Shown: piece by piece, positions 7,662 through 29,253 of the stretch
Layout of the letters: every line of letters begins with the position of its first letter
How positions within the stretch are numbered: position 1 is the stretch's first letter
Source of the DNA: a virus
DNA length: 64,000 nucleotides
Direction: 5' to 3' (one strand)
IMG/VR virus record: IMGVR_UViG_3300031669_000021
Coordinates: 1-64,000 of that record
The notes under the pieces: generated by a model
The model's database searches: none
Told to the model about the DNA's origin: nothing
What the model saw: only the letters and a program-made list of their open reading frames with translations
Position numbers and translations under genes: made by a program

Positions 7662-7670
7662 GGATATAAT

Positions 7671-7940: not shown

Positions 7941-7941
7941 T

Positions 7942-8504: not shown

Positions 8505-8515
8505 AAGGAACAGTA

Positions 8516-8698: not shown

Positions 8699-8709
8699 GG
8701 AATTCACAA

Positions 8710-9998: not shown

Positions 9999-9999
9999 A

Positions 10000-10281: not shown

Positions 10282-10616
10282 TCTGCGTTATTATGGAATC
10301 GCCGTATGCTGGCGACGAACGACCAGTCAATCCAAAAACGGTTGAGAAGAATATTGCCTATGCACGTGAATGTATGTTAGACTGTTTACAGCGAGGTGAA
10401 GCTCCGATGGTCTCACATTTGCTCTATACTCAGGTGTTAGCAGACGATGATCAAGAAGATCGTGATCTCGGAATTGCTGCTGGTCTCGCGTGGCGAAAGG
10501 TTGCAGAAAAATCTGTAGTTTATATTGACAACGGAATGTCAAATGGTATGTGGCACGGAATTGATTTAGCCAGAGAACAAGGCATTCCAGTCGAGTTTAG
10601 GACACTGAAGAAATGA
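10278..10616 (+). CDS. Rossmann-like protein, possibly nucleoside 2-deoxyribosyltransferase-like
   Basis: SPYAGD N-terminus and C-terminal IDNGMSNGMWHGIDLAREQGIPV resemble the YLAGP/..G..E.G.A...GKPV pattern; weak. Confidence 0.35.
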   Translation: MICVIMESPYAGDERPVNPKTVEKNIAYARECMLDCLQRGEAPMVSHLLYTQVLADDDQEDRDLGIAAGLAWRKVAEKSVVYIDNGMSNGMWHGIDLAREQGIPVEFRTLKK

Positions 10617-10867
10617 AAAAAATTGACCGTGATAATTGGACAGAAAAGACAAAAAGACTCAACGCTGACCGCGCACTAAAGATAGGTGACCAAGTTGTTG
10701 ATGTTGACGGACACAAAGGCGTCGTCGTTAAGATTGTCCCCGGAATATCTGACGAAGATCATGGTGTAATATTTGTTTGGCAAGCTGACCGTTATGAATA
10801 TGGTTCAGATAACTGCGAACACTATGTTGAATTTGGTTGGCAACCTTGGATAAGAGTTATTGAATGA
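10613..10867 (+). CDS. hypothetical protein 84 aa
   Basis: track ORF. Confidence 0.45.
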   Translation: MKKIDRDNWTEKTKRLNADRALKIGDQVVDVDGHKGVVVKIVPGISDEDHGVIFVWQADRYEYGSDNCEHYVEFGWQPWIRVIE

Positions 10868-10893
10868 ACAGCCGTAGTCTTCTTTTAAACTGC

Positions 10894-10922
10894 TTGACTT
10901 ATATAATATTATGTGCTATATT
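10894..10922 (+). promoter_or_regulatory. candidate sigma70 promoter
   Basis: TTGACT 10894-10899, 17 nt, TATATT 10917-10922; AT-rich. Confidence 0.35.
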
Positions 10923-10967
10923 ATAACATCATTAAGGAGTATTGCTATTAAACAGAAGTGGATTAAA

Positions 10968-11462
10968 ATGTATTTGGATATGGCGAAGAGAGCAGCAGAA
11001 GAGTCTCACGCCGAGCGTCTAAAAGTTGGTTCAATCTTCGTAACTGTTGATGGAGCAATGTCGATGGGAATAAACGGCCTTTCTGAGGGCGGCGATAATG
11101 TATGCGAAGAAAAAGAATGGTGCAGCGCAGGCGGATGGCTAAGTCCAGATGAAATCTTTGAAGCATGGCCATATACTGGATTTTATAAAGACAAAGATGG
11201 AAACGAGATACAAGGGCGGTATCGTCTTAAAACTCGTTCAGATGTTTCTCATGCTGAAGAAAACTGCTACAGCAAAATGCTACAGGCTGGGCTTTCTGCA
11301 AAAGGTGGCACACTATTCATAACTCACGCTCCTTGCATAAATTGCTCAAGGCAGATCAGGAATAGCGGAACAGCAGAAGTATTTTATGCACAAGATTATA
11401 GAGACTTGGACGGCGTGAATTATCTTATTCGACATGGTGTAAAGGTCACGCGAGTAGATTGA
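10968..11462 (+). CDS. cd: dCMP deaminase
   Basis: HAEENC...THAPCINC zinc-binding signature of the CMP/dCMP deaminase family; start set at ATG 10968. Confidence 0.75.
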   Translation: MYLDMAKRAAEESHAERLKVGSIFVTVDGAMSMGINGLSEGGDNVCEEKEWCSAGGWLSPDEIFEAWPYTGFYKDKDGNEIQGRYRLKTRSDVSHAEENCYSKMLQAGLSAKGGTLFITHAPCINCSRQIRNSGTAEVFYAQDYRDLDGVNYLIRHGVKVTRVD

Positions 11463-11767
11463 TGAATTGGATAAATTTATCAGAGGTAGTTGCAGTCGCA
11501 TTGAATCTATCCTCAATGCTGTGGAACATAACCTCTATGCGTAGATCAAGTAAAGCGTATGGAGAAACAATGATAAACTCAATAAACAAGCAGCACGAAA
11601 TGAGAGTTGAATTTATGGACCACATAACTGAACTTCAGGAATTATATGAGGAAGAAATTAAATTACTCAAAACAAATGAAGGTCTGTATGATTTGAGAAA
11701 TGACCCAGAGCAATATGCAATGTATTTGAAATTACTGTCAGATGGTAAAATTAATAGGGGGGAATAA
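11459..11767 (+). CDS. hypothetical protein 102 aa, N-terminal TM
   Basis: track ORF; ATGA overlap. Confidence 0.45.
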   Translation: MMNWINLSEVVAVALNLSSMLWNITSMRRSSKAYGETMINSINKQHEMRVEFMDHITELQELYEEEIKLLKTNEGLYDLRNDPEQYAMYLKLLSDGKINRGE

Positions 11768-11992
11768 ATGATCTATATAGATAAAAGATCAGGCAACTTA
11801 TACCACGGCAACGAAATTGAGGCATTTGAAGACCACAATACTATTGAGGAGGACAGCATATTCGATGATGGCTGGCAAGCGGCAAGTATTGGAGGTAACT
11901 ATGTTCCAGAAGATAACCCCTGGCCAGAAGGAAGTTATGCAGCATATATGTGGGAAGACGGATGGAATAAATATGACGATTGGAGTGATTAA
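11768..11992 (+). CDS. acidic Trp-rich protein 74 aa
   Basis: track ORF. Confidence 0.45.
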   Translation: MIYIDKRSGNLYHGNEIEAFEDHNTIEEDSIFDDGWQAASIGGNYVPEDNPWPEGSYAAYMWEDGWNKYDDWSD

Positions 11993-11994
11993 AA

Positions 11995-13311
11995 ATGGCA
12001 ACAATAATACCTAAGCAGCATTATGTAACAATTCAATATCGTGGAAAAGATGTATTGGCAGAGTCGGGACATCTTGGATTTGCGTCACCCTATACAAAGG
12101 ATGCAGCATTCAGGAAACGCAAAGCAACACAGGATCAATGGGCATATGGATATGGAACCGCGGTCAATATCGACGAAAACGATGACATTACTGTTGTTGG
12201 CGGAGGGAAACAAGGCGGTTATGGTCACATGGATGTTGATGCGAGCACCCTGTTCATGACCAACTGTTACCCAATCATTATCAACAATGATCCCGTAGAA
12301 GGTTTCCAGATCGCAAAGAGCGTGAAGCGCGGTGGAGGATGGGGTCCGGGAAATGTTGTTTGGCGTATATCTGATCCTCGAGGATTTGAACTTGAAATCA
12401 GTTCATCAAACTTTGCCGCAGTGCTGAGTTGCACTACAATGGTTAATGGGGTAATAGAAGGCAAGTGTGTCTGGGGTCGCAATGGTAAGGACAACATTCT
12501 TTTGCCTGAAGCATCAAGCGTATATCAAGAAGCACACAAACTCACAGAGAAAATAGAGAAGAATATCTCGCTCAAAGATGTGCAGATTGGAGATACGGTA
12601 GAATTACTCAACCCGCACATGAAAGGTAGATATCAATATTTCGGAAAGTATTATTTCTTGGTTCCTGACGAAGAGGCAGATAGCGGTGATCGGTATCGTT
12701 ACGGCGGTAATGGGGTATATTTCTTCAATAAAAAACAAGTTGAGCGATACTTGTTGAAAGATATTGACAACAAAAAATATATTACTTTGAGCACACCAAA
12801 AATAGCAGACATTGTCGAAACTGTTGGTGCCCCGTTGGACAAAATGGATATAGCAAAAGAAGTGACTGGGTGGTTAGGAAGACAAACACGATTGTCTGAT
12901 ATAAATACAGCAATCCTGGCATCTCCTACGAAGATTAAATTAGGTGAGGTGGTAACACAGCTGGTTCCGTTGACAGAAAAAATCGAAAGCAAGTGGCCGC
13001 TTGTTGGAGAGTATTACGCAGACACAATTGTTAGTGAGTTTGACGGAAAAATGTGGAAAGCTAATCAAACCAGAAATTTTGATCACTCAACAAGAACGTA
13101 TGATAATAATCCTATGCTTGAGCAAGTTGAAGTAGATACGGCGCAGAATAAGATTAAGGTGGTTTATACTTACACCAAAGAAGGAAGTTGGTATAGTAGT
13201 TACCATAGTAGACAGACGGTTAAGAGCAAAGACTTTACTTTTGATCAACTAAAAATGTATCGTATAGAAGTTACAGCAAACGGCATTACAGGAAAAGTTT
13301 TTAAACTCTAA
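11995..13311 (+). CDS. hypothetical protein 438 aa
   Basis: long uninterrupted ORF, no recognisable motif. Confidence 0.55.
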   Translation: MATIIPKQHYVTIQYRGKDVLAESGHLGFASPYTKDAAFRKRKATQDQWAYGYGTAVNIDENDDITVVGGGKQGGYGHMDVDASTLFMTNCYPIIINNDPVEGFQIAKSVKRGGGWGPGNVVWRISDPRGFELEISSSNFAAVLSCTTMVNGVIEGKCVWGRNGKDNILLPEASSVYQEAHKLTEKIEKNISLKDVQIGDTVELLNPHMKGRYQYFGKYYFLVPDEEADSGDRYRYGGNGVYFFNKKQVERYLLKDIDNKKYITLSTPKIADIVETVGAPLDKMDIAKEVTGWLGRQTRLSDINTAILASPTKIKLGEVVTQLVPLTEKIESKWPLVGEYYADTIVSEFDGKMWKANQTRNFDHSTRTYDNNPMLEQVEVDTAQNKIKVVYTYTKEGSWYSSYHSRQTVKSKDFTFDQLKMYRIEVTANGITGKVFKL

Positions 13312-13312
13312 T

Positions 13313-13738
13313 ATGGTTAATAAGTATAGATATCACGTAGATATGACAGCACCTGCAGAAGATGAGATTTTTGTCTTCGGCTCAAACCAGGCAGGAATAC
13401 ACGGTGCAGGTGCTGCAAGATACGCACTAAATGAGTTAGGAGCAAAATGGGGTTATGGTGTAGGAACAACAGGAAGATGTTATGCCATACCCACAAAGGA
13501 TTACAATATCAATTCTTTATCGTTAGAAGAGATTGTGTTTTATGTTGACATGTTTGTAGGGCACGCAGCATCGACACCAGATAAGAAGTATTTTGTAACA
13601 AGAGTTGGTTGTGGTCTTGCTGGATTCAAGGATTCAGAGATTGCTCCTATGTTTAAGAATGCTCCAGAAAATTGTAATCTGCCACAAGAGTGGCGAGAAT
13701 ATTTAACGAAAGAAGAAATTGATGACACTATGGATTGA
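13313..13738 (+). CDS. Rossmann/SLOG-like domain protein (FVFGSNQAGIHGAGAARYA motif)
   Basis: Gly-rich nucleotide-binding-like motif; family assignment uncertain. Confidence 0.45.
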   Translation: MVNKYRYHVDMTAPAEDEIFVFGSNQAGIHGAGAARYALNELGAKWGYGVGTTGRCYAIPTKDYNINSLSLEEIVFYVDMFVGHAASTPDKKYFVTRVGCGLAGFKDSEIAPMFKNAPENCNLPQEWREYLTKEEIDDTMD

Positions 13739-14189
13739 AAATGTTCCTGCAATAGCCATACCAACAGCAGATCACTTTGCTGCTGGCGAGAATTCTATGC
13801 TGATTCAGATCATGGATACTTGTTCTTCTTGGTGGCCTGAACCAAAACACAAGTTCAAAGAAGTCTACAAGTTTGAATTCTTAGATATTGGTGACGATGC
13901 GGGTGAGCTAGAAGAATTTGGTTGCACTGAAGAACAAGCAGTGGCATTGGTTGAACTTCTCAAACGCGCACAGGAAAATCGTATGCAGGTTGTCGTTCAT
14001 TGTCACGCAGGAATCTGCCGCAGCGGAGCCGTTGTGGAAGTTGCAGAGATGATGGGATTCACTCCTGTGGAGAGATATCGCCTGCCTAACTCTCGAGTAA
14101 AAAGATTGATGATGCGTGAATTAGGTCTTACATACGATTCAACTAACGATATCTATTCTCAAATTGAGAGGCGACTAAATTACTTCTAA
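13719..14189 (+). CDS. dual-specificity (Cys-based) protein phosphatase
   Basis: Catalytic P-loop VVHCHAGICRSG = HCxAGxxRSG. Confidence 0.7.
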   Translation: MMTLWIENVPAIAIPTADHFAAGENSMLIQIMDTCSSWWPEPKHKFKEVYKFEFLDIGDDAGELEEFGCTEEQAVALVELLKRAQENRMQVVVHCHAGICRSGAVVEVAEMMGFTPVERYRLPNSRVKRLMMRELGLTYDSTNDIYSQIERRLNYF

Positions 14190-14190
14190 A

Positions 14191-14394
14191 ATGAACCCAG
14201 ACCAAAAGAAAGTTTGGGACATTCTTGAGGGTGGTAAGATCTGGACCGCCAAAGTTGAAGTAGATCCAAACAATCCTGAAGAATGTATTCTCGTCTTCCC
14301 TCCAGATTTATTAGAACGTGCCGGGTGGGAAGAGGGAGACATAATCATGTGCTCAATACTCCCAGAAGGTCGAATTATATTAAGCAAACAATAA
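14191..14394 (+). CDS. hypothetical protein 67 aa
   Basis: track ORF, followed by terminator hairpin. Confidence 0.45.
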   Translation: MNPDQKKVWDILEGGKIWTAKVEVDPNNPEECILVFPPDLLERAGWEEGDIIMCSILPEGRIILSKQ

Positions 14395-14435
14395 AGAAAC
14401 CAACATCTTTTAAATGTTGGTTTCTTTATTTTGTA
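14391..14435. terminator. bidirectional rho-independent terminator
   Basis: 16-bp perfect hairpin ATAAAGAAACCAACAT / ATGTTGGTTTCTTTAT with 7-nt loop, T-run on both strands; sits between convergent genes. Confidence 0.6.
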
Positions 14436-14566
14436 ACAGCCGTTTACCTAATTCTGGATCCATTGATTTTGCAATGGCAATCCACCTTGCTAATGCTAAT
14501 CGGTCAATTATTTCTGGCGGTAGCGGTGGTTCATTGCTGCCATTCTCTGACCATCTCTTTACCTTC

Positions 14567-14767
14567 TTAAGCTTTAGTCTTTGCTGCGACTGGTGCAGCA
14601 GGTGCTTTCGGTGATGCTTTCGATGCTTTTTTGGCTTTTTTGGAGTGACTTTTAGAATGTTTTGCTGGGGCCTTTACTACTGTCTTTGTTGCAACAGCGG
14701 ATTCAGCTGCAAAAGCGGTTGAAGATAATGCAAAAACGGCAATAAGTGCGAGTGTTAATTTTTTCAT
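14567..14767 (-). CDS. secreted Lys/Ala-rich small protein 66 aa
   Basis: Signal peptide MKKLTLALIAVFALSSTAFAAE, then KHSKSHSKKAKKASKASPKAPAAP; SD AAGGAAA; one of few minus-strand genes. Confidence 0.45.
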   Translation of the reverse strand: MKKLTLALIAVFALSSTAFAAESAVATKTVVKAPAKHSKSHSKKAKKASKASPKAPAAPVAAKTKA

Positions 14768-14916
14768 TTTTGGTTTCCTTTAAGTTATGTAGAACATTTA
14801 ATCTACATACTAATAACGTTTGTGGAGCCCATAATGAGGACAAGATTTTTACTATTTTTTAACCGAATAAATAGTAGTTCAGAAACGCTGGCGCATAAAT
14901 AAGTGTAGGAGAGAAA

Positions 14917-15774
14917 ATGTTCTATTACTTATACGAAATAAAAAATAACATAACCGGTAAAATTTATGTAGGTGTTCATAAAACTAATAACATAGATGAT
15001 GGGTATATGGGATCAGGGACAATTATTAACCGAGCTACCAAGAAATACGGCATTGAAAATTTTACAAAAACTATTCTTGAATGGTTTGAGGATTCAACTA
15101 ACATGTATTTAAGAGAAGCAGAAGTAATAAATTCTGAATTCTTATTGCGTAAAGATGTGTATAATATTAAACTTGGCGGAAAAGGTGGATTTGATTATAT
15201 AAACAAAAATAACCTTGGATGGGGAGAGAACAATAAAAGAAGAGTAGAACAAAGCGAAAGAATGGCCTATCGTCATACTTCATCAGAAAATAAAGAAGTA
15301 TGGAATTTGATTAGACAAAAAAGATGGAATAAGCCCGAAGCTAAAGAAAAACACTCTAGGCAAATAAAAGAAAACTGGAAGAACATTGAATGGGCAGCAA
15401 AAGATATAGCAAAAAAGAAAGAAGTAGGTAACAGACCAGAAATTAGAGAGATGCGACGCAAGAACAGTTTAGAAATGTGGCAACGGCCAGAATATCAAAA
15501 AAAGCATAAAGCTGCAATGGCTAAAGTTACTTCTAATCCAACTTGGTTAGAAAATAATCGACAAAACGGAATCAAAAATTGGAAGGATCAGACCAAGCGC
15601 GAAAATATGATGAAAAATAGACCAGCAATGACTGTTGCACAGAGAGAAGAACAGGCAAAAAGAACAACCGAAATTAACAAAAAATCTTGGTCTGATCCTG
15701 CCTCAAGAGAGAAAAGAATAGAAGCAATCCGAGCAGGACAGTTAGCATATTGGGCTAAGAAGAGAAACGGTTAA
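14917..15774 (+). CDS. GIY-YIG homing endonuclease (Seg-like)
   Basis: YYLYEIKNNITGKIYVGVHKT...R..H GIY-YIG core; AT-rich; Lys-rich C-terminus with NUMOD-like repeats; SD AGGAGAG. Confidence 0.7.
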   Translation: MFYYLYEIKNNITGKIYVGVHKTNNIDDGYMGSGTIINRATKKYGIENFTKTILEWFEDSTNMYLREAEVINSEFLLRKDVYNIKLGGKGGFDYINKNNLGWGENNKRRVEQSERMAYRHTSSENKEVWNLIRQKRWNKPEAKEKHSRQIKENWKNIEWAAKDIAKKKEVGNRPEIREMRRKNSLEMWQRPEYQKKHKAAMAKVTSNPTWLENNRQNGIKNWKDQTKRENMMKNRPAMTVAQREEQAKRTTEINKKSWSDPASREKRIEAIRAGQLAYWAKKRNG

Positions 15775-15852
15775 AATAGATTTGATTTTTCACATAAGAT
15801 TCTGTTATTGTTTTACTATGTGTTTTATTACACAACTATAGGAGAAGTAAAT

Positions 15853-16086
15853 ATGAAAGTAACAAATCAGAATCAATTTTTAGTTGAGTATCTTCGTGGA
15901 ACAGGTCGCGAGTTAACAGTAGCTCAGGCAAGAGCAAGATTTGCAGTGGGAAATCTTCGTGCTCGCATTGCAGAACTTCGCAAGGCAGGATTAAATGTCA
16001 AGAGCCGCAAGAATTACAGAAACGCGGCAGCCTACCAGATCCCAGTTCGTCTTCAAGATGGATCGCGTCGTAAAGTAAGTCTATAA
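15853..16086 (+). CDS. HTH DNA-binding protein (HTH_39-like)
   Basis: ELTVAQARARFAVGNLRARIAELRKAGLNV fits the helix-turn-helix ..RLAARIxELR.. family; ATG 15853 after SD AGGAGA. Confidence 0.5.
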   Translation: MKVTNQNQFLVEYLRGTGRELTVAQARARFAVGNLRARIAELRKAGLNVKSRKNYRNAAAYQIPVRLQDGSRRKVSL

Positions 16087-16107
16087 TATCAGCGCAATAC
16101 TGTGATA

Positions 16108-16134
16108 AAATAGGGGCTGAAGCCCCTATTTTAT
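16108..16134 (+). terminator. rho-independent terminator
   Basis: AAATAGGGGC-TGAA-GCCCCTATTT hairpin plus TAT. Confidence 0.55.
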
Positions 16135-16146
16135 GCGAGAAACAGC

Positions 16147-16174
16147 TTGACTTTCTCGCCAAATAGTGTATAAT
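16147..16174 (+). promoter_or_regulatory. sigma70-type early promoter, cassette variant
   Basis: TTGACT 16147-16152, 16 nt, TG-TATAAT 16167-16174. Confidence 0.55.
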
Positions 16175-16205
16175 ATATGTTATTAAGTAATAGGAGAGAC
16201 AGAGA

Positions 16206-16688
16206 ATGGCAGTCATTGACTATACAGCAATCGCAGAAGACTTGAAGACAAAGATTACAAAAGCAGTCAAGTCGTCAACTGTTTCTTTTACAAGTAATCC
16301 AATATACACAGCACTCGGCAACGAGGAATATATGGTTCAAGTTGAGTGCATGGAACCAACGGCAATATGTGATATCATTGCAAGCGTTATTGAAAAACAT
16401 AACTACGGCTTTGTTATCCGCGAAGAAACACATGAAGGACAATTTGACTGGCAGGCTGATACTTACATCAAAGATTCTGCTACTATTACATTTGGAGTAA
16501 AAACTATGGCAATAACAAAAAATGATTTACCAGGTTATGTTTCAGATATGTTCTCTGACTTCCTTTACTACAATAGAAAAGGGGATGAAGATTTCACCGT
16601 AGACGATGCAAACGACTTGCCCAACATTGTCACGAAAGAAGAATTAATGGCAATGTTTGCAAAAGAGATTGATAACATTTATGATTAA
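16206..16688 (+). CDS. hypothetical protein 160 aa
   Basis: track ORF after promoter. Confidence 0.5.
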   Translation: MAVIDYTAIAEDLKTKITKAVKSSTVSFTSNPIYTALGNEEYMVQVECMEPTAICDIIASVIEKHNYGFVIREETHEGQFDWQADTYIKDSATITFGVKTMAITKNDLPGYVSDMFSDFLYYNRKGDEDFTVDDANDLPNIVTKEELMAMFAKEIDNIYD

Positions 16689-17559
16689 ACTTAGAGAATA
16701 TTCGGATTTACACTTAGATTGGTATTTTAGCGGCGGTGTGCCGTTTAATGCTGAGACGGGACAGATGAAGTGCTGGTTTCCGCCAGATTTACCCGATGAC
16801 AAAGAAACTACGTTGATTTTGGCCGGCGATCTTTGGGTAGGAACTAAATGGATTGAGTTTGCTACCTTCTCGTGGATTGGGAAAGTTGCTCCCAAATTCA
16901 AACAAGTTTTAGTGGTGCTGGGCAACCATTGTTATTGGCCGTGTAACCACGCACTGACTATTCAGGAAGGAGCGACCAAGTGCAACAATCTGCTCAAAGA
17001 TATGGGATTATATAATGTCAAAGTATTAGACATGGATACTTATGCAGACGGAGATTACTTGTTTGTTGGTTGCACACTGTGGACTGATATGAACAAGGGC
17101 GAGCCGCTTGCTATGCACAACATGTCAAATTTCATGGCATATGACGGCAAAATTGCCTACGAAACAGGTCTAAACGGGATGTATAGTCGCTTTACCAGCG
17201 ATAAATGGGTTCAGACTCATATGAAGCACCGTGACTACATTAAACACGTTGCAGCACAAAATCGCGACAAAAAGTTGATTGTTATCACTCATCACTTACC
17301 ACTTATGCATTTGGGTGATCCTGTTTATCAAGGAAATGCCAGCAATGCTTATTACATGAGCGATTTGTCGGATTTGATACTCGATAACGATAATATCAAG
17401 ATGTGGTTCTTTGGCCATACTCATCACCAAAGCGACACGACGTTCCCGCCGTACGCAAAAACAGGTGATGGATGCAGGATGATCAACAACTGTGTCGGGT
17501 ATCAGGGTGAACACATGGAACAATTGGGTTTGGTCAGACACGAGGTGATTGAGATCTAA
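16681..17559 (+). CDS. calcineurin-like metallophosphoesterase
   Basis: SDLHLD, GDLW, GNHC, ITHH, GHTHH metal-ligand motifs in canonical order; ATG 16681 overlaps previous stop. Confidence 0.7.
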   Translation: MIKLREYSDLHLDWYFSGGVPFNAETGQMKCWFPPDLPDDKETTLILAGDLWVGTKWIEFATFSWIGKVAPKFKQVLVVLGNHCYWPCNHALTIQEGATKCNNLLKDMGLYNVKVLDMDTYADGDYLFVGCTLWTDMNKGEPLAMHNMSNFMAYDGKIAYETGLNGMYSRFTSDKWVQTHMKHRDYIKHVAAQNRDKKLIVITHHLPLMHLGDPVYQGNASNAYYMSDLSDLILDNDNIKMWFFGHTHHQSDTTFPPYAKTGDGCRMINNCVGYQGEHMEQLGLVRHEVIEI

Positions 17560-19036: not shown

Positions 19037-19064
19037 TTGACTTTCTCCTCATTTAGTGTATAAT
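19037..19064 (+). promoter_or_regulatory. sigma70-type early promoter, cassette variant
   Basis: TTGACT 19037-19042, 16 nt, TG-TATAAT 19057-19064. Confidence 0.55.
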
Positions 19065-19087: not shown

Positions 19088-19366
19088 ATGGAAAATCACA
19101 AGAGATATTTTATCCACAGGACCAACAGTGATGGTTCTCTTGAATATCGATATCAGACCGGAGAGTGGCGCGATGATTTTAAGGACGCGCAGTTATGGGC
19201 CAGCAAAGAATTTGCAATTAAGAAAGCAAAAGAGTTGAAGAAAAGCGACCTTAACTGGCAGAAAGATTCAGAATTCTGCGGACCATACACTGGGCCTAAA
19301 TTGACCGGCATGTATGTCGGTGAAGTAACAGTAACATATAACGATCAAGATTGGGAAGAAGTATGA
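19088..19366 (+). CDS. hypothetical protein 92 aa
   Basis: track ORF; stop overlaps pnk start. Confidence 0.5.
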   Translation: MENHKRYFIHRTNSDGSLEYRYQTGEWRDDFKDAQLWASKEFAIKKAKELKKSDLNWQKDSEFCGPYTGPKLTGMYVGEVTVTYNDQDWEEV

Positions 19367-20265
19367 ACAAAGCAATAATCACAGTAGGAATTTCAGCATC
19401 AGGCAAGTCAACCTTTGCGGATGAGTGGCTTAACGCAGGGCCTAATCGCGTCCGCATCGAGCGAGATCTTGTGCGTAAGGCACTGGTCGAAGCCGACGGG
19501 AAAGAATGGTCTTGGGACAAATGGAACTGGAAAAGAGAAAGCGAAGTTACTGCCATCATCAATCGCAGAATCGAAGCATGTGCAGGATCACATGACATCA
19601 TCCTGTCAGATACCAATCTGCACACTGGTCGTCGTAATACTCTTGTCAAGTGGCTTGAGTCTCTTGGCTACGAAGTCGAAGTGAAAATGTTTCCCGTATC
19701 AATCGAGGAAGCATGGAAGCGTGATGCAAAACGCGCAAATGGCGTAGGACATTCTGTCATTGCAAAACAATACGAGCAAAATCTCGAAAACAGCACACGA
19801 CGTCGTTATGTAGCTGACCCAAATAAACCAGCCTGCATCTTGGTTGATATCGACGGAACACTTGCTCATATGAACGGTAAGCGCGGTGCATTTGAATGGG
19901 AGAAGGTTGGTCTTGATGTCGTCGACGAGGCAGTTCGAGCTATTGTCAATCGCTTTGCATTCCGTGATGATGGTAGCACAGAAACAGACACCGTAGTTAT
20001 TGCACTCTCTGGGCGTGACGGTATTTGCGAGCCAGAAACACGGCAGTGGTTAAAGGACAACGATGTTGGATTCCACAAACTTTTTATGCGAGCACCAAAC
20101 GATATGCGAAAAGATACAATCGTCAAGGAAGAAATCTTCTGGCGAGATATTGCAGACAACTACAGTGTTCTGTTCGCTATCGACGACCGCCCAAGTGTTG
20201 CAAGAATGTGGCGTGAATTGGGAGTAAAAGTATTTCAAGTTGGCAATCCTCACATTGAATTTTAA
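19363..20265 (+). CDS. pseT: polynucleotide 5'-kinase / 3'-phosphatase (T4 Pnkp)
   Basis: N-terminal P-loop GISASGKST and ISDTNL; C-terminal HAD phosphatase VDIDGTLAHMNGKRG, RKDTIVKEEIFW, AIDDRPSV..MWRELGV; co-linear with T4 PseT. Confidence 0.85.
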   Translation: MNKAIITVGISASGKSTFADEWLNAGPNRVRIERDLVRKALVEADGKEWSWDKWNWKRESEVTAIINRRIEACAGSHDIILSDTNLHTGRRNTLVKWLESLGYEVEVKMFPVSIEEAWKRDAKRANGVGHSVIAKQYEQNLENSTRRRYVADPNKPACILVDIDGTLAHMNGKRGAFEWEKVGLDVVDEAVRAIVNRFAFRDDGSTETDTVVIALSGRDGICEPETRQWLKDNDVGFHKLFMRAPNDMRKDTIVKEEIFWRDIADNYSVLFAIDDRPSVARMWRELGVKVFQVGNPHIEF

Positions 20266-21938: not shown

Positions 21939-21948
21939 GTAATTCCCT

Positions 21949-21990
21949 GTAGCATATTCGTAAGAGTATGCTACGATGGTTTTATTTATT
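21949..21990 (+). terminator. rho-independent terminator
   Basis: GTAGCATA-10nt-TATGCTAC hairpin plus GATGGTTTTATTTATT. Confidence 0.5.
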
Positions 21991-22188
21991 GGAGAGCAAA
22001 TGATTCGTTACCCGCAAGACATGGTTGAGCTTCGATATCTTAAAGTTAAGAAAAACAATCCCTGGCACAAACCAGAACCCAAACTTCAATACCGAATCAA
22101 GAACGTTAGCATTGTTGATTATACAGAAACTTGGTCAGAGTGGAGAGATGTGCCTACAGTGGATTTGGCAGACGAAGATGATGACTAA
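21976..22188 (+). CDS. hypothetical protein 70 aa
   Basis: track ORF. Confidence 0.45.
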   Translation: MVLFIGEQMIRYPQDMVELRYLKVKKNNPWHKPEPKLQYRIKNVSIVDYTETWSEWRDVPTVDLADEDDD

Positions 22189-22384
22189 AGAATTTACTGT
22201 TAGAATTCCAGCATCAAATTTGAGCAAAGTATATAATAGCTTGGGTTTTGTGGCCTATTCGTGGTGCAAGACAAACTGTACAGGGAAGTTTGATTTCGGC
22301 CAAAACATTCCTGAAATAGATATATTTGTGGCTAATTTTGAAAACGAAGAAGATGCCACGCTATTCGCGTTGGTGTGGGCATAA
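22181..22384 (+). CDS. paralog array member A1 (..WCKTNCTGKFDF..FENEEDATLFALVWA)
   Basis: ATG 22181 overlapping previous stop; shared C-terminal module. Confidence 0.5.
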   Translation: MTKEFTVRIPASNLSKVYNSLGFVAYSWCKTNCTGKFDFGQNIPEIDIFVANFENEEDATLFALVWA

Positions 22385-22596
22385 TGCAAACAATCGTACG
22401 GGTTAGTGATCCGTCAATGGACAAAATAAAAGAGATGGATGAGTTTATTGCATCATCCGAGTTAAAACTCATTAAAAAAGAATATACAGATGTAAGTGAT
22501 TTCAGTATATCTGTTGACGAAATATTTTCTTTTACCTTTGGCAACGAAGAAGATGCAACGTTATTTCAACTAAGATTTGTAGGAAGCAATGGCTGA
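22384..22596 (+). CDS. paralog array member A2 (..FGNEEDATLFQLRF)
   Basis: ATG 22384 (TAATG overlap); shared C-terminal module. Confidence 0.5.
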   Translation: MQTIVRVSDPSMDKIKEMDEFIASSELKLIKKEYTDVSDFSISVDEIFSFTFGNEEDATLFQLRFVGSNG

Positions 22597-22942
22597 CCTA
22601 AAATATGTTGCTGGATCTATTTGGCGTAGTCTATTTAATAGAAAATTTTCTCTTGCTGACAATAAGAACGTAAATACTAATGCCACCACAGTCAAAACAT
22701 TTTATAAGGGATTTACTCACATCATTGCCTGGGACGATACTCAATGGTATATGAATAAATTGCCTAAAGCAAGCGATTGGTGCGACAAAAATTGTAAAGG
22801 AACTTACTTCTCGCAGATTCACTGTGTCTACTTTGAAGATAGAATAAACGATTGGGTAATCGACGAGTTAAAAGGCAAGGATTTTTGTTTTTGGGTATTT
22901 GAAAATGAAGAAGATGCAATTATGTTTTCATTAAAGTGGTAA
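22589..22942 (+). CDS. paralog array member A3 (..WCDKNCKGTYF..FENEEDAIMFSLKW)
   Basis: track ORF; SD AGGAAG. Confidence 0.55.
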   Translation: MADLKYVAGSIWRSLFNRKFSLADNKNVNTNATTVKTFYKGFTHIIAWDDTQWYMNKLPKASDWCDKNCKGTYFSQIHCVYFEDRINDWVIDELKGKDFCFWVFENEEDAIMFSLKW

Positions 22943-22943
22943 T

Positions 22944-23120
22944 ATGAATTACACAATTAAAGTATTTAACGTAGACTACGAAGAAGTACAAAAATGGTGC
23001 TCTGATCAATTGGGAGAGCGTGACGTTATTTGGGATGTTCGTGGTCTTTCTTTTATGCCATGGTTTACATTTAAAAACGAGTCTGACGCAGTGATTTTTT
23101 CTTTGCGGTGGGTCAAATGA
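22944..23120 (+). CDS. paralog array member A4, 58 aa (..WCSDQLG..FKNESDAVIFSLRWVK)
   Basis: ATG 22944 to TGA 23118-23120; below track cutoff. Confidence 0.5.
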   Translation: MNYTIKVFNVDYEEVQKWCSDQLGERDVIWDVRGLSFMPWFTFKNESDAVIFSLRWVK

Positions 23121-23524
23121 CATTTATAGAAAAAATTAAAGATAAATGGCTTACCTGGAGAACAGGGTATAATAAAAGTGAACGAGAATATCGAGCCTGG
23201 CGGGATCAGAATATTGCGTCAAATGCAAGCGACGTGACAAATTACTTTCACGGTTATAAGTATGTGATTGCATTAGATTTCAATAAAGTATGCACTGATT
23301 TTGAACCAATGTATGGTAAAATAGAGTCGACAGAATTTTTAAGTTATATGTATCCGCATCGTCCTTTGGGTAAGAACTGTTCATATGGTTGGTTCCGCGG
23401 ATACTGGGATAAATGGGATGGCCGATTCCATTTGAATGATATTGACGACGGAGGGACAGACCACATGTTCATTGCAACTAATAGCGGCAAGGATGCTATA
23501 ATGATAGCATTGAAGTGGTCATGA
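23117..23524 (+). CDS. paralog array member A5 (..NSGKDAIMIALKWS)
   Basis: ATG 23117 overlapping A4 stop (ATGA). Confidence 0.5.
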   Translation: MTFIEKIKDKWLTWRTGYNKSEREYRAWRDQNIASNASDVTNYFHGYKYVIALDFNKVCTDFEPMYGKIESTEFLSYMYPHRPLGKNCSYGWFRGYWDKWDGRFHLNDIDDGGTDHMFIATNSGKDAIMIALKWS

Positions 23525-23820
23525 ATATAGTTAATATAGAGTCTGATAAGATCCTAAACTTAGTCAGTGCCTGTGCGCCGCTAAGAGTAATCGTTACAGT
23601 TCATAGTATCGACGATAGATATTATATTCACTTTGATGGCCGATCAACATATAAAGATGCAAAAAAGTGGCATGTTCTGTGGGAAGGATTTGAAAAATAC
23701 GTATCAGGCATGTTACGCCATTATAATATAAAAGTAAAAAACATCGATATCAAAGACGAATATACTGCAGACTGTTTTATAGGAACACTATTTGATATAC
23801 TGAGCACAAATAATGAATGA
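23521..23820 (+). CDS. array-embedded gene A6 lacking the C-terminal module
   Basis: ATG 23521 overlaps A5 stop; ends ..LFDILSTNNE. Confidence 0.45.
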   Translation: MNIVNIESDKILNLVSACAPLRVIVTVHSIDDRYYIHFDGRSTYKDAKKWHVLWEGFEKYVSGMLRHYNIKVKNIDIKDEYTADCFIGTLFDILSTNNE

Positions 23821-24121
23821 ATTTATAAATTATGACTTTGAGTCAATGTATCCAAACGTCATACACATGTCGACGAAAGGTAAAATTCACATTAGAGAGG
23901 GTTATCGCGGCGAGTGGGTTATAAATCTTCCAGCCAGCAAAAATGATGAGATACTTGCGTGGTGCTACGAGGTATTTGGGGAGCCGGGAAGAAGTAGGAA
24001 ATATAATTGGCGCGTGAGTTGGAGCGATCAAGCAAACGGATATAGCAGTGGCATAGGAGGTCCAAGAATTTTTCTTCGGAGCGAACGAGATGTCACCTTA
24101 TTTAGGTTGAAGTGGGAATAG
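23813..24121 (+). CDS. paralog array member A7 (..AWCYEVFGEPG..ERDVTLFRLKWE)
   Basis: track ORF; ATGAATGA overlap. Confidence 0.55.
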   Translation: MNEFINYDFESMYPNVIHMSTKGKIHIREGYRGEWVINLPASKNDEILAWCYEVFGEPGRSRKYNWRVSWSDQANGYSSGIGGPRIFLRSERDVTLFRLKWE

Positions 24122-24411
24122 TGGATTTTAAGATAATAAAAACAAGAGTAAATATTCCTATGAGACAAATTCAATGGCCTCGGGCAGCAACGGAAAACGG
24201 CATTGTTATGCAACAATATAAAATATTAGAACACGAAAAACAACCAAACGGAGAAGTTTGGTATTCTGTTCGAGTCAATGATGATATTTTACTGTGGCTA
24301 AACGAAACGTTTGAATATGAAACTGACTTTAGAGTAGTTCATCATCTTAAAGGAGTATGGGTTGGTATGAACGAAAAAACACTTGCTCTTCTCCAATTGA
24401 AGTGGTCATAA
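24112..24411 (+). CDS. paralog array member A8 (GEVWYSV..EKTLALLQLKWS)
   Basis: track ORF with GTG start; alternative in-frame ATG 24160. Confidence 0.5.
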   Translation: MGIVDFKIIKTRVNIPMRQIQWPRAATENGIVMQQYKILEHEKQPNGEVWYSVRVNDDILLWLNETFEYETDFRVVHHLKGVWVGMNEKTLALLQLKWS

Positions 24412-24412
24412 T

Positions 24413-24811
24413 ATGTCAGACGAAATTGATAAGAAAATGGAAATGACCAACGCAGTTCTTGAAAAACATCGAGAAGATCTAAAGAAGATGTTTGCTGATA
24501 ACAAAACTAACATACCAGAAGAAAATACGAAAATACTCCTCCCAATGATAAGAAACGTAATGCCATCAATTATCGCCTCCAGTATCGTTAATGTCCAGCC
24601 TATGACCTGGCCAGGAGAAAAATTTGCTATTGGGAAAGAAGAAGAAATCAACGGAGAAGTTTGGTATAACGTAACTTGCGACGACGAAATTTGGCAGTGG
24701 GTCATTGATACTATTGATGACAGTCAATACCAAGACGGAACAAACGAATTTCAGAACAGATTAACACTATCGCCAGAGGCGATGATGATGTTTAAGTTAA
24801 AGTGGTCATAG
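24413..24811 (+). CDS. paralog array member A9 (GEVWYNV..PEAMMMFKLKWS)
   Basis: track ORF; ATG 2 nt after previous stop. Confidence 0.55.
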   Translation: MSDEIDKKMEMTNAVLEKHREDLKKMFADNKTNIPEENTKILLPMIRNVMPSIIASSIVNVQPMTWPGEKFAIGKEEEINGEVWYNVTCDDEIWQWVIDTIDDSQYQDGTNEFQNRLTLSPEAMMMFKLKWS

Positions 24812-24833
24812 TAATCAATAACTTAGAAAGTCC

Positions 24834-24861
24834 TTGACTTTTCGGTAGAAGAGCGTATAAT
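24834..24861 (+). promoter_or_regulatory. sigma70-type early promoter, cassette copy
   Basis: TTGACT 24834-24839, 16 nt, TATAAT 24856-24861, TTTCGG spacer. Confidence 0.6.
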
Positions 24862-24888: not shown

Positions 24889-25296
24889 ATGATCGAATAT
24901 GAAGATTTGTCACCTCTTATCCGCGAAAGTCTTGTGCAGTCAAGCGTTCAGCTTATGCGAGATGTCACAGAGGCTTGGGGAAAAGATAAGGGGTTTGAGC
25001 TGTGGGAGAAAATCTCCGAGACACTTGGAGACGGCGTCAAGGGTGATATTTTCTTTGGCATGATTAGCGGGAAACACCTCGAAGTCAGGGTTCGAATCAG
25101 ATCTGCAAGAAATGTTGACAGCCGCGTAAACATGATCAAGGCAGTGAGAACTGCTACGGGAATGGGTCTAAAAGATGCAAAAGATTTTTGTGATGCTGTT
25201 TGGGCCGGAAAACCAGATTCTGTTGTATGCGAAACTTCCGAGGCCGCGAGAACGCTTCTCGCAACGTTGCGAGAACTTGGGTGCGACGCAGTATGA
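24889..25296 (+). CDS. protein with ribosomal L7/L12 C-terminal-domain-like module
   Basis: VNMIKAVRTATGMGLKDAKDFCDAV..SEAARTLLATLRELGCDAV aligns to bL12 CTD [43 protein letters not shown]. Confidence 0.6.
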   Translation: MIEYEDLSPLIRESLVQSSVQLMRDVTEAWGKDKGFELWEKISETLGDGVKGDIFFGMISGKHLEVRVRIRSARNVDSRVNMIKAVRTATGMGLKDAKDFCDAVWAGKPDSVVCETSEAARTLLATLRELGCDAV

Positions 25297-25350: not shown

Positions 25351-26538
25351 ATGTATAATTTTGAAGTACAAAAATTACATGCAGAATGCAATACTCAAGA
25401 GTCGTTTCTTGAAAATCTGAAACTAATTGGCGTAGATGCGCGAGACTATCCAGAACACAAAATGTGGTTGCTGGACTACAACATGATTGAGTGTGAGAAA
25501 AATCATCCAGTCGTGCTTGAGTGTCGTGGTCTGGTAATGGGATATGACGGTTCAATCATCCGTAAGGGCTTCGATCGTTTCTTCAATTTGGGAGAGAACG
25601 GCGTAGATACATTTGACTTCGAGAATTCTGTTGTCTTTGAAAAGGCAGACGGTTCTTTGATGTTTGTTTACTGGTGCCCTCCAACAAATCAGTGGGAAAT
25701 AGGAACTCGCGGAACAGCATTTGCTGAAGGACCAAACGAGTGGCATGGCACATTCCGTGGTTTCATGCTTAAAGCAATGGGACGCACTGAGAAAGAATTT
25801 CAGCTGTCTGCAGGTCGAAATCTGCATAAGGGAACAACATATCTGTTTGAGGCAGTTGGACCTGACAACCGAATTGTCACTGCATATGAAGAGAATCACC
25901 TGGTATTCTTATCCTCGTTCTTTAAGGGAGTCGAGGAAGATGCAGGCGCATTGCGGGTTATGACAGATTTCTTTGTGAATGACAGCGGATGGAACGTTCG
26001 TGAAATTCGCAAGTATTCCTTCAAGACGCAAGAAGATTGCATGATTGCATTGCACGAGCTTACTGGTCTGCAAGAGGGATATGTGGCGTACAATAAGTTG
26101 ACAGGTGATCGAGTAAAAATAAAGTCGCCTGTCTACTTAGCAGCACATCGTCTGCGTGGTAACGGTCTGACATTGAACTCTATTTGTGAACTCGTTGTAA
26201 TGAACGAGGTGGACGAGTATTTGGCTACTTTTCCAGAGGATGCACACAAGTTTGATTCTGCTAAGGAAATGTTGGCAATAATGATACGGGAGTTAATTAC
26301 AAACTATTGCTCACACCAGTTTATGGAAACACAAAAAGAGTTTGCACTTGCGGTGAAGGACTTACCATTGTCGGGAGTTATGTTTCAGGCTCGAAAGAAG
26401 AACACAGATGTCGTGCATGAATTCAATCAGGTTGCAACTAACAAGAAGGCTGATTGGCTGAAAGAACGTTTGCTCCAAACTGATCAGTATCGAGCAGTTT
26501 TGATATCTGAGGGTCGACTCGGAGCTCAGTGTCTTTAA
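25351..26538 (+). CDS. rnlA: RNA ligase 1 (T4 RnlA-like)
   Basis: Motif I FEKADGSLMF (KxDGSL) as in T4 Rnl1; approx 395 aa; tRNA-repair partner of Pnkp. Confidence 0.65.
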   Translation: MYNFEVQKLHAECNTQESFLENLKLIGVDARDYPEHKMWLLDYNMIECEKNHPVVLECRGLVMGYDGSIIRKGFDRFFNLGENGVDTFDFENSVVFEKADGSLMFVYWCPPTNQWEIGTRGTAFAEGPNEWHGTFRGFMLKAMGRTEKEFQLSAGRNLHKGTTYLFEAVGPDNRIVTAYEENHLVFLSSFFKGVEEDAGALRVMTDFFVNDSGWNVREIRKYSFKTQEDCMIALHELTGLQEGYVAYNKLTGDRVKIKSPVYLAAHRLRGNGLTLNSICELVVMNEVDEYLATFPEDAHKFDSAKEMLAIMIRELITNYCSHQFMETQKEFALAVKDLPLSGVMFQARKKNTDVVHEFNQVATNKKADWLKERLLQTDQYRAVLISEGRLGAQCL

Positions 26539-27787: not shown

Positions 27788-28036
27788 ATGAGAATAATGC
27801 TGACACGACAAGATTGGGACTTATCAGCCAAGCTTGCATTGGAGTTACTAGATTATCTACAAAAAAATGTAGAGTCAGAATATAGCGCCTGGTCTAGTGC
27901 GGCAGGAAAAGCATTTGCAAGCAAGGATGAATCCTGGCAGCTTTGGCAAGGAATGGAATCTATTTCAATTGAAACAAAAGATGAGCAACACGAAACATAT
28001 TTAACTCTTATATACGGTGATACATATGGACATTGA
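27788..28036 (+). CDS. hypothetical protein 82 aa
   Basis: track ORF. Confidence 0.45.
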   Translation: MRIMLTRQDWDLSAKLALELLDYLQKNVESEYSAWSSAAGKAFASKDESWQLWQGMESISIETKDEQHETYLTLIYGDTYGH

Positions 28037-28373
28037 AGGTAAAATAATTGTAATGGCAAATACATATACCATTGACGAATATGATGACATAGCTCGTGAA
28101 TTTCTCGAGGAGATTTTTGGCATCGACTTCAACTCTTGCTTTATAAGCGACGAATCTTCTCTTTGGGATTTTTCTGGTTGTTGCATACCAGAAAACCACG
28201 AAAGAGATTTTAGCCTACCTAAGGAAGAATCACTTAAGGCATGTTATGATGCAGGTCGTGATAACATGGTGCGTCTCATCAAAGAAAAATACAATATTAA
28301 CATCGATGCAAATGATTATCTAATCACTGTATTCGAAAAGATTCGTCAAAGCAGAAACATCACACTAAACTAA
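28026..28373 (+). CDS. hypothetical protein approx 115 aa ending ..ITVFEKIRQSRNITLN
   Basis: ATG 28026; C-terminus duplicated in 28520-28684. Confidence 0.45.
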   Translation: MDIEGKIIVMANTYTIDEYDDIAREFLEEIFGIDFNSCFISDESSLWDFSGCCIPENHERDFSLPKEESLKACYDAGRDNMVRLIKEKYNINIDANDYLITVFEKIRQSRNITLN

Positions 28374-28382
28374 GGAAAGAAA

Positions 28383-28523
28383 ATGATAGTCAAGGTACCA
28401 GCTGAATCGCGAGACGAATTTAATGAAATGCTTGATATTTTAACGAGCTACGGAGTTAAACATGCTGACGATGAACTTCTCAGCATGTTAGAAAATATGG
28501 AAATAATCGAGGAAGAAGTATGA
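28383..28523 (+). CDS. acidic small protein 46 aa
   Basis: ATG 28383 to TGA 28521-28523 (ATGA overlap with next). Confidence 0.3.
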   Translation: MIVKVPAESRDEFNEMLDILTSYGVKHADDELLSMLENMEIIEEEV

Positions 28524-28684
28524 CAGATACCAGCGACGGCGCACCACGACAAACACCAGACGAAGTAGATTTTGAAAAAATGGTGGAACTCTTTGATATT
28601 GCATTATCGAGTGATAACCCGGATGATTCGTTAATAACGGTGTTTGAGAAGATTCAACAAACAAGAAACATTACGTTGAACTGA
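28520..28684 (+). CDS. small protein 54 aa ending ..FDIALSSDNPDDSLITVFEKIQQTRNITLN
   Basis: ATG 28520; shares segments with both neighbours. Confidence 0.35.
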   Translation: MTDTSDGAPRQTPDEVDFEKMVELFDIALSSDNPDDSLITVFEKIQQTRNITLN

Positions 28685-28694
28685 GGAGAAATAC

Positions 28695-28844
28695 ATGTTT
28701 CATATATTTAATAGTCATGGCTCATCGTTTAGCCCCACAGAAGTATGGACTATGATTGCAATGTTTTTGATTCTGATTGGTGCTATTGTTGTATTAGGCA
28801 TTTATGGATCAGACATTGATAACGACGATAACGAGGAAGAATAA
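28695..28844 (+). CDS. small membrane protein 49 aa
   Basis: SD GAGGAG then ATG 28695; TM WTMIAMFLILIGAIVVLGIY; acidic tail. Confidence 0.4.
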   Translation: MFHIFNSHGSSFSPTEVWTMIAMFLILIGAIVVLGIYGSDIDNDDNEEE

Positions 28845-29253
28845 CGTGTCGACCGCAGACTCACAGGACAAAGAAGAAAGACCATCAAACACCGACATTG
28901 ATCTCGAACATCTGATTACAGTATTAGACATCGCACTATCAAGCGATAATCCCGCAGTGAAGGATCAACTACAAAAATTGTTGATGATATCTGTATTGGT
29001 ATCGTCGAATAACCCAGCAGCAAGAGCAGCAGGGCCACTTAAACAATTACTGTCAGAGATTAACGGATTGCGTAATCGAGTAAGAGCAATTGAAAGCACT
29101 TTAGCACAAGTGCGCGCCGAAAGATATACAGAGTTCGATAGATATAAATCTACCATGGCAAAAAAATGGGAAAATCTTCCAGAAACAAAGCCGACAACAG
29201 AAGATAAGAATAATAGCGTTGAAAGAATTAAGAGGATACTTGGAGGAATATGA
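28804..29253 (+). CDS. coiled-coil protein approx 149 aa
   Basis: track ORF; alternative GTG 28846 right after previous stop; contains ITVLDIALSSDNPAVKDQ related to 28520 gene. Confidence 0.4.
   Translation: MDQTLITTITRKNNVSTADSQDKEERPSNTDIDLEHLITVLDIALSSDNPAVKDQLQKLLMISVLVSSNNPAARAAGPLKQLLSEINGLRNRVRAIESTLAQVRAERYTEFDRYKSTMAKKWENLPETKPTTEDKNNSVERIKRILGGI

Follow-up and report, generated by a model that had tools for sequence, protein, structure and literature searches.

A tandem array of small phage proteins with a shared C-terminal domain, set among translation and RNA-repair genes

Why would a phage carry, side by side, eight small genes whose products all end in the same way? The question is raised by a 64,000-nucleotide stretch of viral DNA (here the window: positions 1-64,000 of the IMG/VR record IMGVR_UViG_3300031669_000021, to which all coordinates and gene calls refer). 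From 22178 to 24811 on its plus strand lie nine co-oriented open reading frames (ORFs) of 58-135 amino acids (aa), which we call A1 to A9. Adjacent stops and starts overlap or almost touch, through junctions of the types TAATG, ATGA, ATGGCTGA and ATGAATGA, and both the ORFs and their tight packing are as a first-pass annotation of the sequence had described them. That annotation had also reported a C-terminal module common to all but one of the nine. The genes are listed here, with E values against the 75-member family profile described below.

A1, 22178/22181-22384, plus strand: module protein of 67-68 aa; E 2e-7
A2, 22384-22596, plus strand: divergent module protein of 70 aa, at a TAATG junction; E 3e-6
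A3, 22589-22942, plus strand: long-form module protein of 117 aa, at a junction ATGGCTGA; E 5e-10
A4, 22944-23120, plus strand: minimal stand-alone module of 58 aa
A5, 23117-23524, plus strand: long-form module protein of 135 aa, at an ATGA junction
A6, 23521-23820, plus strand: embedded gene without the module, 99 aa, at an ATGA junction
A7, 23813-24121, plus strand: module protein of 102 aa; E 7e-13
A8, 24112-24411, plus strand: module protein of 99 aa, counted from the GTG at 24112 (alternative starts at 24121 and 24160); E 2e-5
A9, 24413-24811, plus strand: chimera of a capsid segment and the module, 132 aa; E 1e-6

All-versus-all BLASTP connects all eight module genes, A1-A5 and A7-A9. 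Links join A1 to A2 (E 9e-7), A3 to A4 (6e-7), A3 to A5 (7e-7, over 125 residues) and A8 to A9 (1e-7), with weaker ones between A3 and A8 (2e-3) and between A4 and A7 (1e-3). In leave-one-out searches of the 848 window ORFs with hidden Markov models (HMMs), A1-A5 and A7 were recovered at E 3.5e-6 to 6e-3 (A4 at 1.5e-5), outranking unrelated ORFs; the signal was weak for A8 (E 0.1) and A9 (E 1.9). We also ran on 11,803 ORFs a profile of 75 family members, which are distant from the window except for A4, its sole window sequence. This profile matches A1, A2, A3, A7, A8 and A9 at E 2e-5 to 7e-13; the value for A4 itself, 1e-18, is not independent, since A4 is among the profile's members. A5 does not reach E 0.01 with the same profile, and its membership comes through its orthologue on contig L001 (5e-4), its similarity to A3 and the alignment of the long form that these two genes share. 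Taken together, the comparisons indicate that the eight genes share the module beyond chance, as the first-pass annotation had held. It had also described the embedded gene at 23521-23820 as lacking the module, and this was borne out: hhalign gives A6 no relation to it (probability 0.3%), a value on which we ruled out A6 as a cryptic member.

Far from the array, a 98-aa ORF at 5354-5650 has a stretch that recalls the module, DQEKMLFILKYS, with a tail of 14 residues after it. The array profile scores it at E 8.8, short of significance, which makes it at best a very divergent member.

What kind of protein is the module? It had been described as some 40 residues long, but it extends over about 55-60 aa and makes up a complete domain. 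The AF2 model of A4, made from a 75-sequence alignment, has a pLDDT of 94.5 and a pTM of 0.77, and places strand 1 at residues 3-6, helix 1 at 12-22, strand 2 at 30-35, strand 3 at 38-43 and helix 2 at 46-56. Because the 58-aa A4 gives so confident a fold, the module is predicted to be a complete, autonomous beta-alpha-beta-beta-alpha domain, a two-layer sandwich, of which A4 would be the bare form; the model of the long-form A5 is of low confidence (pLDDT 44). The motif GEVWY..DD, which had been listed as an additional feature common to A8 and A9, is indeed present in both, but it is no addition, since it forms strand 1 and helix 1 of the domain.

The family consensus reads M..I.V......ei..WC.E.FG.....W.......F.F.NE.DA.LF.LRW. 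Apolar and helix-cap columns are conserved at I5, L7, I15, W18, C19, F23, G24, W30, F41 and F43 and further at A49, L51, F52, L54 and W56, together with the N45-E46-x-D48 signature that opens helix 2. The loop between strand 1 and helix 1, the loop between helix 1 and strand 2, and the hairpin between strands 2 and 3 are hypervariable, in length as well as in sequence. The conserved polar columns (C19, E21, N45, E46, D48 and R/K55) probably cluster at one pole of the fold, as its topology leads one to expect. As a whole the family is acidic (median pI 5.1) and rich in tryptophan (5.8%), and most members, at a median length of 67 aa, are the fold alone. Among 431 family ORFs, 90% have the end of the domain at most three residues from the C-terminus, and all eight window modules likewise lie at the extreme C-terminus, with a 4-residue tail in A2, which ends in LRFVGSNG, without the tryptophan; this A2 subtype is kept on L001 and on the contig L070.

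These features change the picture of a constant handle with hypervariable heads that had first been drawn for the array. The conserved part is the whole autonomous fold, and the extensions belong to recurrent, conserved subtypes; the earlier image should give way to one scaffold with variable loops and optional N-terminal peptides. Nor are the N-terminal parts all unrelated, as had been stated: homology between A3 and A5 runs for about 125 aa, and the paralogues A8 and A9 separated recently.

The libraries hold no counterpart. Searches with the window proteins and the 75 family members found no match for the module in Pfam-A, PHROGs v4 or NCBIfam, PADLOC-DB gave none for the nine array proteins or for the 70-aa ORF directly upstream of A1, and the family profile returned only noise from PDB sequences (E >= 0.45). 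The domain has no metal-ligand pattern, and the library searches gave no catalytic or known-domain signal. Foldseek found no significant match (best E 0.33). The secretin N, KH-like, ACT, RRM and Pcc1 domains and de novo ferredoxin-like minibinders are small two-layer alpha/beta sandwiches of similar fold, at 2-18% sequence identity; this likeness is one of common fold and no evidence of a shared family. Matches in BFVD are described only as 'Uncharacterized protein [uncultured Caudovirales phage]', source annotations call members only 'hypothetical protein', and a literature search by keyword and motif string found no description of the family or of the phenomenon. The initial statement that the module is not a described domain thus stands across Pfam-A, PHROGs v4, NCBIfam, PADLOC and PDB sequences and folds.

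How widely, and where, does the domain occur? Queried with the eight domains from the window, an exhaustive HMMER search returned 188 cluster representatives at E <= 1e-3, nearly all of them 55-150 aa long and matched up to their final residues; two large proteins that ranked high, P0016 and P0020, were considered as module fusions and set aside as repeat-driven false positives. A degenerate DNA pattern for NE.DA.LF.L[RK]W picked out 94 viral stretches in IMG/VR. The same scan of 185,579 bacterial and archaeal genomes (596 Gb) gave 2 matches, about the chance expectation: one arose by chance inside a dehydrogenase, and the other is real, on a Microvirga aerophila contig with two members. The searches point to a new, almost virus-only protein family that is absent from curated libraries.

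In viruses, tandem arrays are the rule for this family. Among 93 viral loci scanned with the family profile, 60 have at least three copies, 37 at least five and 12 at least ten, and in all loci but one the copies lie on a single strand. Many array-bearing contigs are 100-560 kb long. On one 360-kb contig (L109, from JGI 3300051214), 31 members occupy 9.8 kb (7314-17132) as part of an unbroken series of some 65 small genes, with a PCRF/RF-1 release-factor-like gene upstream. A single cultured phage was found to have it, Sinorhizobium phage Phosso (469 kb), in which at least ten members lie among tRNA genes at 2.9-12.1 kb, and a second array of five is at 369.5-371.0 kb, all annotated as hypothetical. 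A tblastn search of the cultured phages with a single member gave no match, and Phosso was found only with the family consensus as query.

The same gene set recurs on independent contigs, and comparison with these shows how the array changes. L001 conserves the order pnk, array, L12-like gene, rnl; its array has eleven small genes, three of which are additional module members. L003 is near-identical to the window, with A3 and A4 identical and A1 absent, and the indel runs precisely between the start codons of A1 and A2. The distant L070, a 155-kb contig, has in order an A2-type gene, an A6-type gene, one more member, an A7-type gene, an A8/9-type gene, the L12-like gene and rnl. Orthologues of A6 lie inside the arrays of L001, L063 and L070. 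Between the window and L001, identity is 32-68% for the array genes, 68% for pnk and 80% for rnl. Within the window, DNA similarity between paralogues is limited to short degenerate segments and to a gene-end motif, TTRAAGTGGTCATRA, which encodes Leu-Lys-Trp-Ser-stop, occurs at three junctions (23510-23526, 24397-24413 and 24797-24813) and overlaps or abuts the following start codon; translational coupling is one possible role for it, a recombination joint another. Because the DNA identity of the paralogues is low, the duplications would be old, and this, with the presence of the array on independent contigs, led us to reject an assembly artefact or a recent duplication. The comparisons indicate an old array that has been maintained while whole genes were gained and lost, and the comparison of copy number between relatives that the first-pass annotation had asked for shows it present and variable, with three extra members on L001 and no A1 on L003. 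The label 'T4-like' holds only loosely: against 50,697 cultured-phage records the region has no megablast match, and Rnl1 is at most 41% identical.

Some members carry more than the fold, and these additions recur across phages. In the long form, seen in A3 and A5, there is an N-terminal extension of about 55 aa, and strands 2 and 3 are separated by an insertion, W..NDIGG.D; the A5 subtype is found in the arrays of more than 12 distant viral contigs. A7 represents a type with an N-terminal YD.ESMYP and a GR.RKY.WR loop that is widespread and includes a single-copy 110-aa protein, and a motif-like pattern is specific to A7-type N-termini (19 of 19 matches in 837,073 residues). We considered this N-terminus as a family-B DNA polymerase motif A (DxxSLYPS) and discarded the idea, as there is no Pfam match at E <= 1; the likeness is probably coincidental. 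In the L070 orthologue the same region reads like the capsid strand K.R.L.A.WT.E.

Another kind of addition is a segment of capsid protein. In A9, the module takes up residues ~86-132, and residues ~6-67 have their homologue near the N-terminus of gp23-type major capsid proteins; A8 is a paralogue with a degenerated N-terminal motif. Residues 39-67 match Pfam Gp23 (PF07068) at E 1.7e-5, with 24.8 bits against a cut-off of 24.4 and over only positions 5-33 of the 376 in the profile. A9 also matches phrog_138 (1.9e-7) and, by tblastn, capsid genes (7e-6), and residues 6-67 are about 40% identical to jumbo-phage gp23-type capsids, with the counterpart in Atu_ph07 at ~32-102. A full capsid protein, with its HK97-type fold and ~400-520 aa, was dismissed as an identity for A9, which has 132 aa and aligns only over ~6-67. 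Chimeras of the A9 type occur in at least nine lineages (L001, L018, L036, L044, L052, L070, L075, L107 and P0019).

Other parts of the capsid have been joined to the module elsewhere. At 4217-4576 of L044, the segment of T4 gp23 from 251 to 308 (EAKTRKL.A.YTIE.AQD and the spine helix) is fused to a module, with single-pass phmmer E values of 1e-3 against T4 gp23 and 3e-4 against the Atu_ph07 capsid, and at 4448-4795 of L075 the fused segment is residues 315-361 of the Atu_ph07 capsid (E 2e-4, also single-pass phmmer). Across these two loci and one more, at 10186-10497 of L009, the conserved capsid segments borne as N-terminal copies are this strand-and-helix stretch and a C-terminal one, YID...Y.PYVPL. 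Gp23 is the only Pfam family matched repeatedly in the 70 N-terminally extended members, with six matches (best 9e-12). At least three different capsid peptides thus appear to be carried on the module scaffold.

In T4 gp23, the A9 segment aligns to ~95-120, and R100, P104, I107, A108, V114 and P116 are invariant across the aligned sequences. From this alignment and from the residue range that we take Gol to occupy in T4 gp23, 93-122, the A9 segment would be the Gol region. Gol comprises 29 residues, the most conserved part of gp23, and its peptide binds domains II and III of EF-Tu and thereby triggers the Lit protease (PMC3014915). What A9 shares with Gol is this alignment to a conserved stretch of gp23. 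The two differ in setting: Gol is part of a capsid protein, whereas A9 is a stand-alone protein of 132 aa in an early-type unit, and EF-Tu binding by A9 is putative.

The genes and signals on either side of the array are as follows.

19037-19064, plus strand: sigma-70-type promoter TTGACT-16-TATAAT, 11/12 positions
19363-20265, plus strand: pnk, polynucleotide kinase-phosphatase (Pfam HAD_PNKP 1.2e-40, AAA_33 1.3e-16)
21948-21975, plus strand: 12-bp hairpin followed by a T-rich tail, directly 5' of the start of the 70-aa ORF
21976-22188, plus strand: 70-aa ORF without the module, ending W.EW.DVPTV
24834-24861, plus strand: sigma-70-type promoter TTGACT-16-TATAAT, 11/12 positions, closing the array and preceding the L12-like gene
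24889-25296, plus strand: L12-like protein of 135 aa (PF00542, E 1.7e-8)
25351-26538, plus strand: rnl, T4 Rnl1-type RNA ligase (Pfam RNA_lig_T4_1 8.8e-11; tblastn)

Near-perfect sigma-70-type promoters on the plus strand start at 19037, 24834 and 27054. The first is likely the start of a unit that includes pnk, genes for a YqeY protein and a Band_7 lipoprotein, and the array; from the promoter positions, the array would therefore lie inside a unit that begins before pnk. The 70-aa ORF, whose stop overlaps the A1 start, has no Pfam or PHROG match, and its orthologue is within the L001 array (7842-8039) rather than upstream of it as in the window. The hairpin at 21948-21975 may be an attenuator or an RNA-processing site. 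Pfam confirms the flanking pnk and rnl genes named by the first-pass annotation, and the array does end, as stated there, at a promoter before an L12 mimic. Residues 77-132 of the latter match the L12 C-terminal domain with 35.1 bits against a cut-off of 25.9, and this protein showed no sign of the N-terminal domain through which true L12 dimerises and binds L10.

Homologues of the L12-like gene, from no fewer than five other lineages, lie within a few kb of arrays, and mostly adjacent to them, on L001, L070, L032/L073/L095, L046 and L036. Among the 50,697 cultured-phage records only Phosso has the gene, 2.5 kb from its five-gene array, which is directly followed by a polynucleotide kinase gene; pnk is also near arrays on L067, L073 and L063, and other arrays are within about 6 kb of genes for ribosomal protein S21 or release-factor-like proteins. 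Repair of tRNA by Pnk and Rnl1 is a known counter-measure to anticodon nucleases. These neighbours suggest a link with translation and RNA repair, to which we give limited weight because in large phages genes of this kind and small ORFs lie together in any case.

The remainder of the window holds several features apart from the array. A small set of paralogues lies at 28026-28373, 28520-28684 and 28804-29253, with C-termini of the form ..LITVFEKI(R/Q)Q(S/T)RNITLN in two of the ORFs and DIALSSDNP in two. The phage is unusually rich in chaperone genes. Two Cpn10 (GroES)-like ORFs, one of 56 aa at 41474-41644 that matches only the C-terminal half of the profile and one of 129 aa at 41891-42280 that matches profile positions 2-77, may be a split or duplicated co-chaperonin, and between them is an ORF whose CPFC motif suggests a glutaredoxin. 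A full DnaJ, with J domain and C-terminal domain (53156-54013), adjoins a ClpB/ClpA-type double-AAA ATPase (54048-56348). ORFs at 444-782 and 46978-47628, 46 kb apart, share a short, weakly MORN-like repeat, DG.K.WYLNG..HR.DGPAIE. Two genes, at 14917-15774 on the plus strand and at 45854-46447 on the minus strand, give weak GIY-YIG and NUMOD3 matches and likely encode free-standing homing endonucleases; the second is one of the few minus-strand genes.

What might the array be for? Our preferred reading, held tentatively and at a little less than an even chance, is that it encodes soluble, acidic binding proteins, made early, each paralogue with partners of its own, for use in counter-defence or host takeover. 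We lean towards counter-defence or takeover because early-type promoters, acidic composition, virus-only distribution and gene turnover all fit. In this model the region would be the distal part of an early-type operon under a sigma-70-like promoter, and eight of its nine translationally coupled genes would be old, diverged tandem duplicates of one virus-restricted domain. The domain would serve as a stable acidic scaffold, with each paralogue binding a different protein partner soon after infection, and the set would grow, shrink and reshuffle through recombination of gene units. Extra N-terminal peptides on some members may add a second binding function; in A9 this peptide would be the best-conserved stretch at the N-terminal end of the phage's gp23-type capsid protein. 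There may also be a tie between the array proteins and the genes for translation and tRNA repair found time and again beside the arrays.

Protein binding, paralogue-specific targets and a counter-defence role are all predictions, and three points weigh against them. Early expression of the array would follow from the promoter consensus and from that alone. The conserved polar pole could mark one common ligand or metal site instead of paralogue-specific binding. Synonymous divergence (dS) between the window and L001 is saturated, which makes the ratio of nonsynonymous to synonymous substitution (dN/dS) unusable as a measure of diversifying selection.

An unlikely alternative is that the modules belong to a translation and RNA-repair accessory set and act on EF-Tu or other translational GTPases, on tRNA or on the ribosome. 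They would join the L12 mimic and Pnk/Rnl1 in protecting or reprogramming translation during infection, and the acidic pole would be a common docking site. The setting is in keeping with this: the array lies between Pnk and the YqeY protein on one side and the L12-like gene and Rnl1 on the other, an L12-like gene adjoins the arrays of Phosso and of the contigs listed above, Pnk does so on L067, L073, L063 and in Phosso, and S21 or release-factor-like genes are about 6 kb from other arrays. The A9 segment, if taken as Gol, recalls the EF-Tu-binding peptide of T4, and in fold the module is similar to KH, RRM and Pcc1-type domains. Yet RNA binders are seldom acidic, as most members are; such neighbours were seen for only a minority of the sampled arrays, in the DNA examined; and large phages pool translation genes and small ORFs in plastic regions, so that adjacency may reflect genome organisation. 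The capsid chimeras raise a different idea, which we consider rather unlikely: that the module proteins, or at least these members, are virion-directed, either as prohead cargo injected with the DNA, like the T4 internal proteins, or as modulators of capsid assembly, with the capsid-derived peptides as targeting or co-assembly signals. Residues 6-67 of A9 match the propeptide-plus-N-arm region of gp23-type capsids, segments of T4 gp23 (251-308) and of the Atu_ph07 capsid (315-361) sit on modules on L044 and L075, and no Pfam family other than Gp23 recurs in the 70 extended members. But most members have no capsid-like peptide, the array belongs to a unit with an early-type promoter far from the structural genes at 32.8-39.8 kb, and no prohead-protease site or T4-type capsid-targeting sequence was recognised in an inspection by eye, without a profile.

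The gene-precise indel on L003, the TTRAAGTGGTCATRA motif at three gene ends with its accompanying short shared DNA segments, and the highly variable copy number could be what a largely dispensable, duplication-prone filler leaves behind, in which recombination at conserved junction or module sequences regenerates copies and the single paralogues have no function. We think this very unlikely, as the reading frames are intact, structural residues are conserved across very distant phages, and the low DNA identity of the paralogues makes the duplications old. The window and L070 also have in common the subtypes A5, A6, A7 and A9 and the order A2, A6, A7, A9, L12-like gene, rnl. More speculative, and in our view quite unlikely, is that the arrays form a scaffolded library of early decoys and binders that defends the phage's supply line of translation and capsid. 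The fold would then carry variable surfaces and, in recurrent subtypes, also the best-conserved peptides of the phage's own gp23-type capsid protein, from the N-arm (Gol-like), from the strand-plus-spine-helix and from a C-terminal strand. Shown early in infection, such peptides might decoy, without activating them, the host's abortive-infection sensors of capsid (Lit-type proteases, CapRel-like proteins and others), or might pre-occupy EF-Tu, and the L12 mimic, Pnk/Rnl1 and the array would together make up one 'translation-protection island'.

Is there a precedent for such arrays? The nearest case on record comes from jumbo phages, in which tiny domains have undergone lineage-specific expansion. 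Bacillus phage G, a jumbo phage, has about 35 copies of a zinc ribbon that expanded in its lineage (Iyer et al., 2021, PMC7824862). The two cases are alike in that a tiny domain is present in tens of copies in a large phage and its function is guessed from context. They differ in fold, the module being a beta-alpha-beta-beta-alpha domain without a metal-ligand pattern; in range, as the module is found in many unrelated phage lineages rather than one; and in arrangement, since module copies are strictly tandem and translationally coupled and include conserved subtypes, among them the capsid-peptide chimeras.

Other systems share parts of this organisation. The internal proteins IPI, IPII and IPIII of T4, and the plastic early regions of T4-type phages, provide clusters of small, fast-evolving accessory proteins with constant and variable parts, of which at least IPI* is a counter-defence factor. 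In the internal proteins the constant part is a short N-terminal capsid-targeting peptide removed by the prohead protease, whereas here it is a whole C-terminal fold; a comparison of these proteins with the module family by eye, without a profile, noticed no sequence similarity. Polyimmunity loci of polymorphic toxin systems (SUKH and the Imm families) are tandem sets of small binding paralogues, each thought to neutralise a different toxin variant, and such proteins have also been recruited by some DNA viruses. These loci are mostly bacterial and have other folds; no homology to the module was detected, and no toxin genes are linked to the window array.

The family can occupy about 10 kb of a phage genome, and naming it would clear many 'hypothetical proteins' from the annotation of large phages. 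A rigid mini-scaffold with free loops, amplified and reshuffled in early regions, is the anatomy expected of a natural binder library in the arms race between phage and host, which makes the arrays promising ground for finding new proteins of counter-defence or host control. The capsid-peptide chimeras, beside an L12 mimic and tRNA-repair enzymes, would offer a testable link to the question of why a capsid segment binds EF-Tu, and Phosso with its Sinorhizobium host is a cultured pair that has both the arrays and the L12-like gene and could serve as an experimental entry point.

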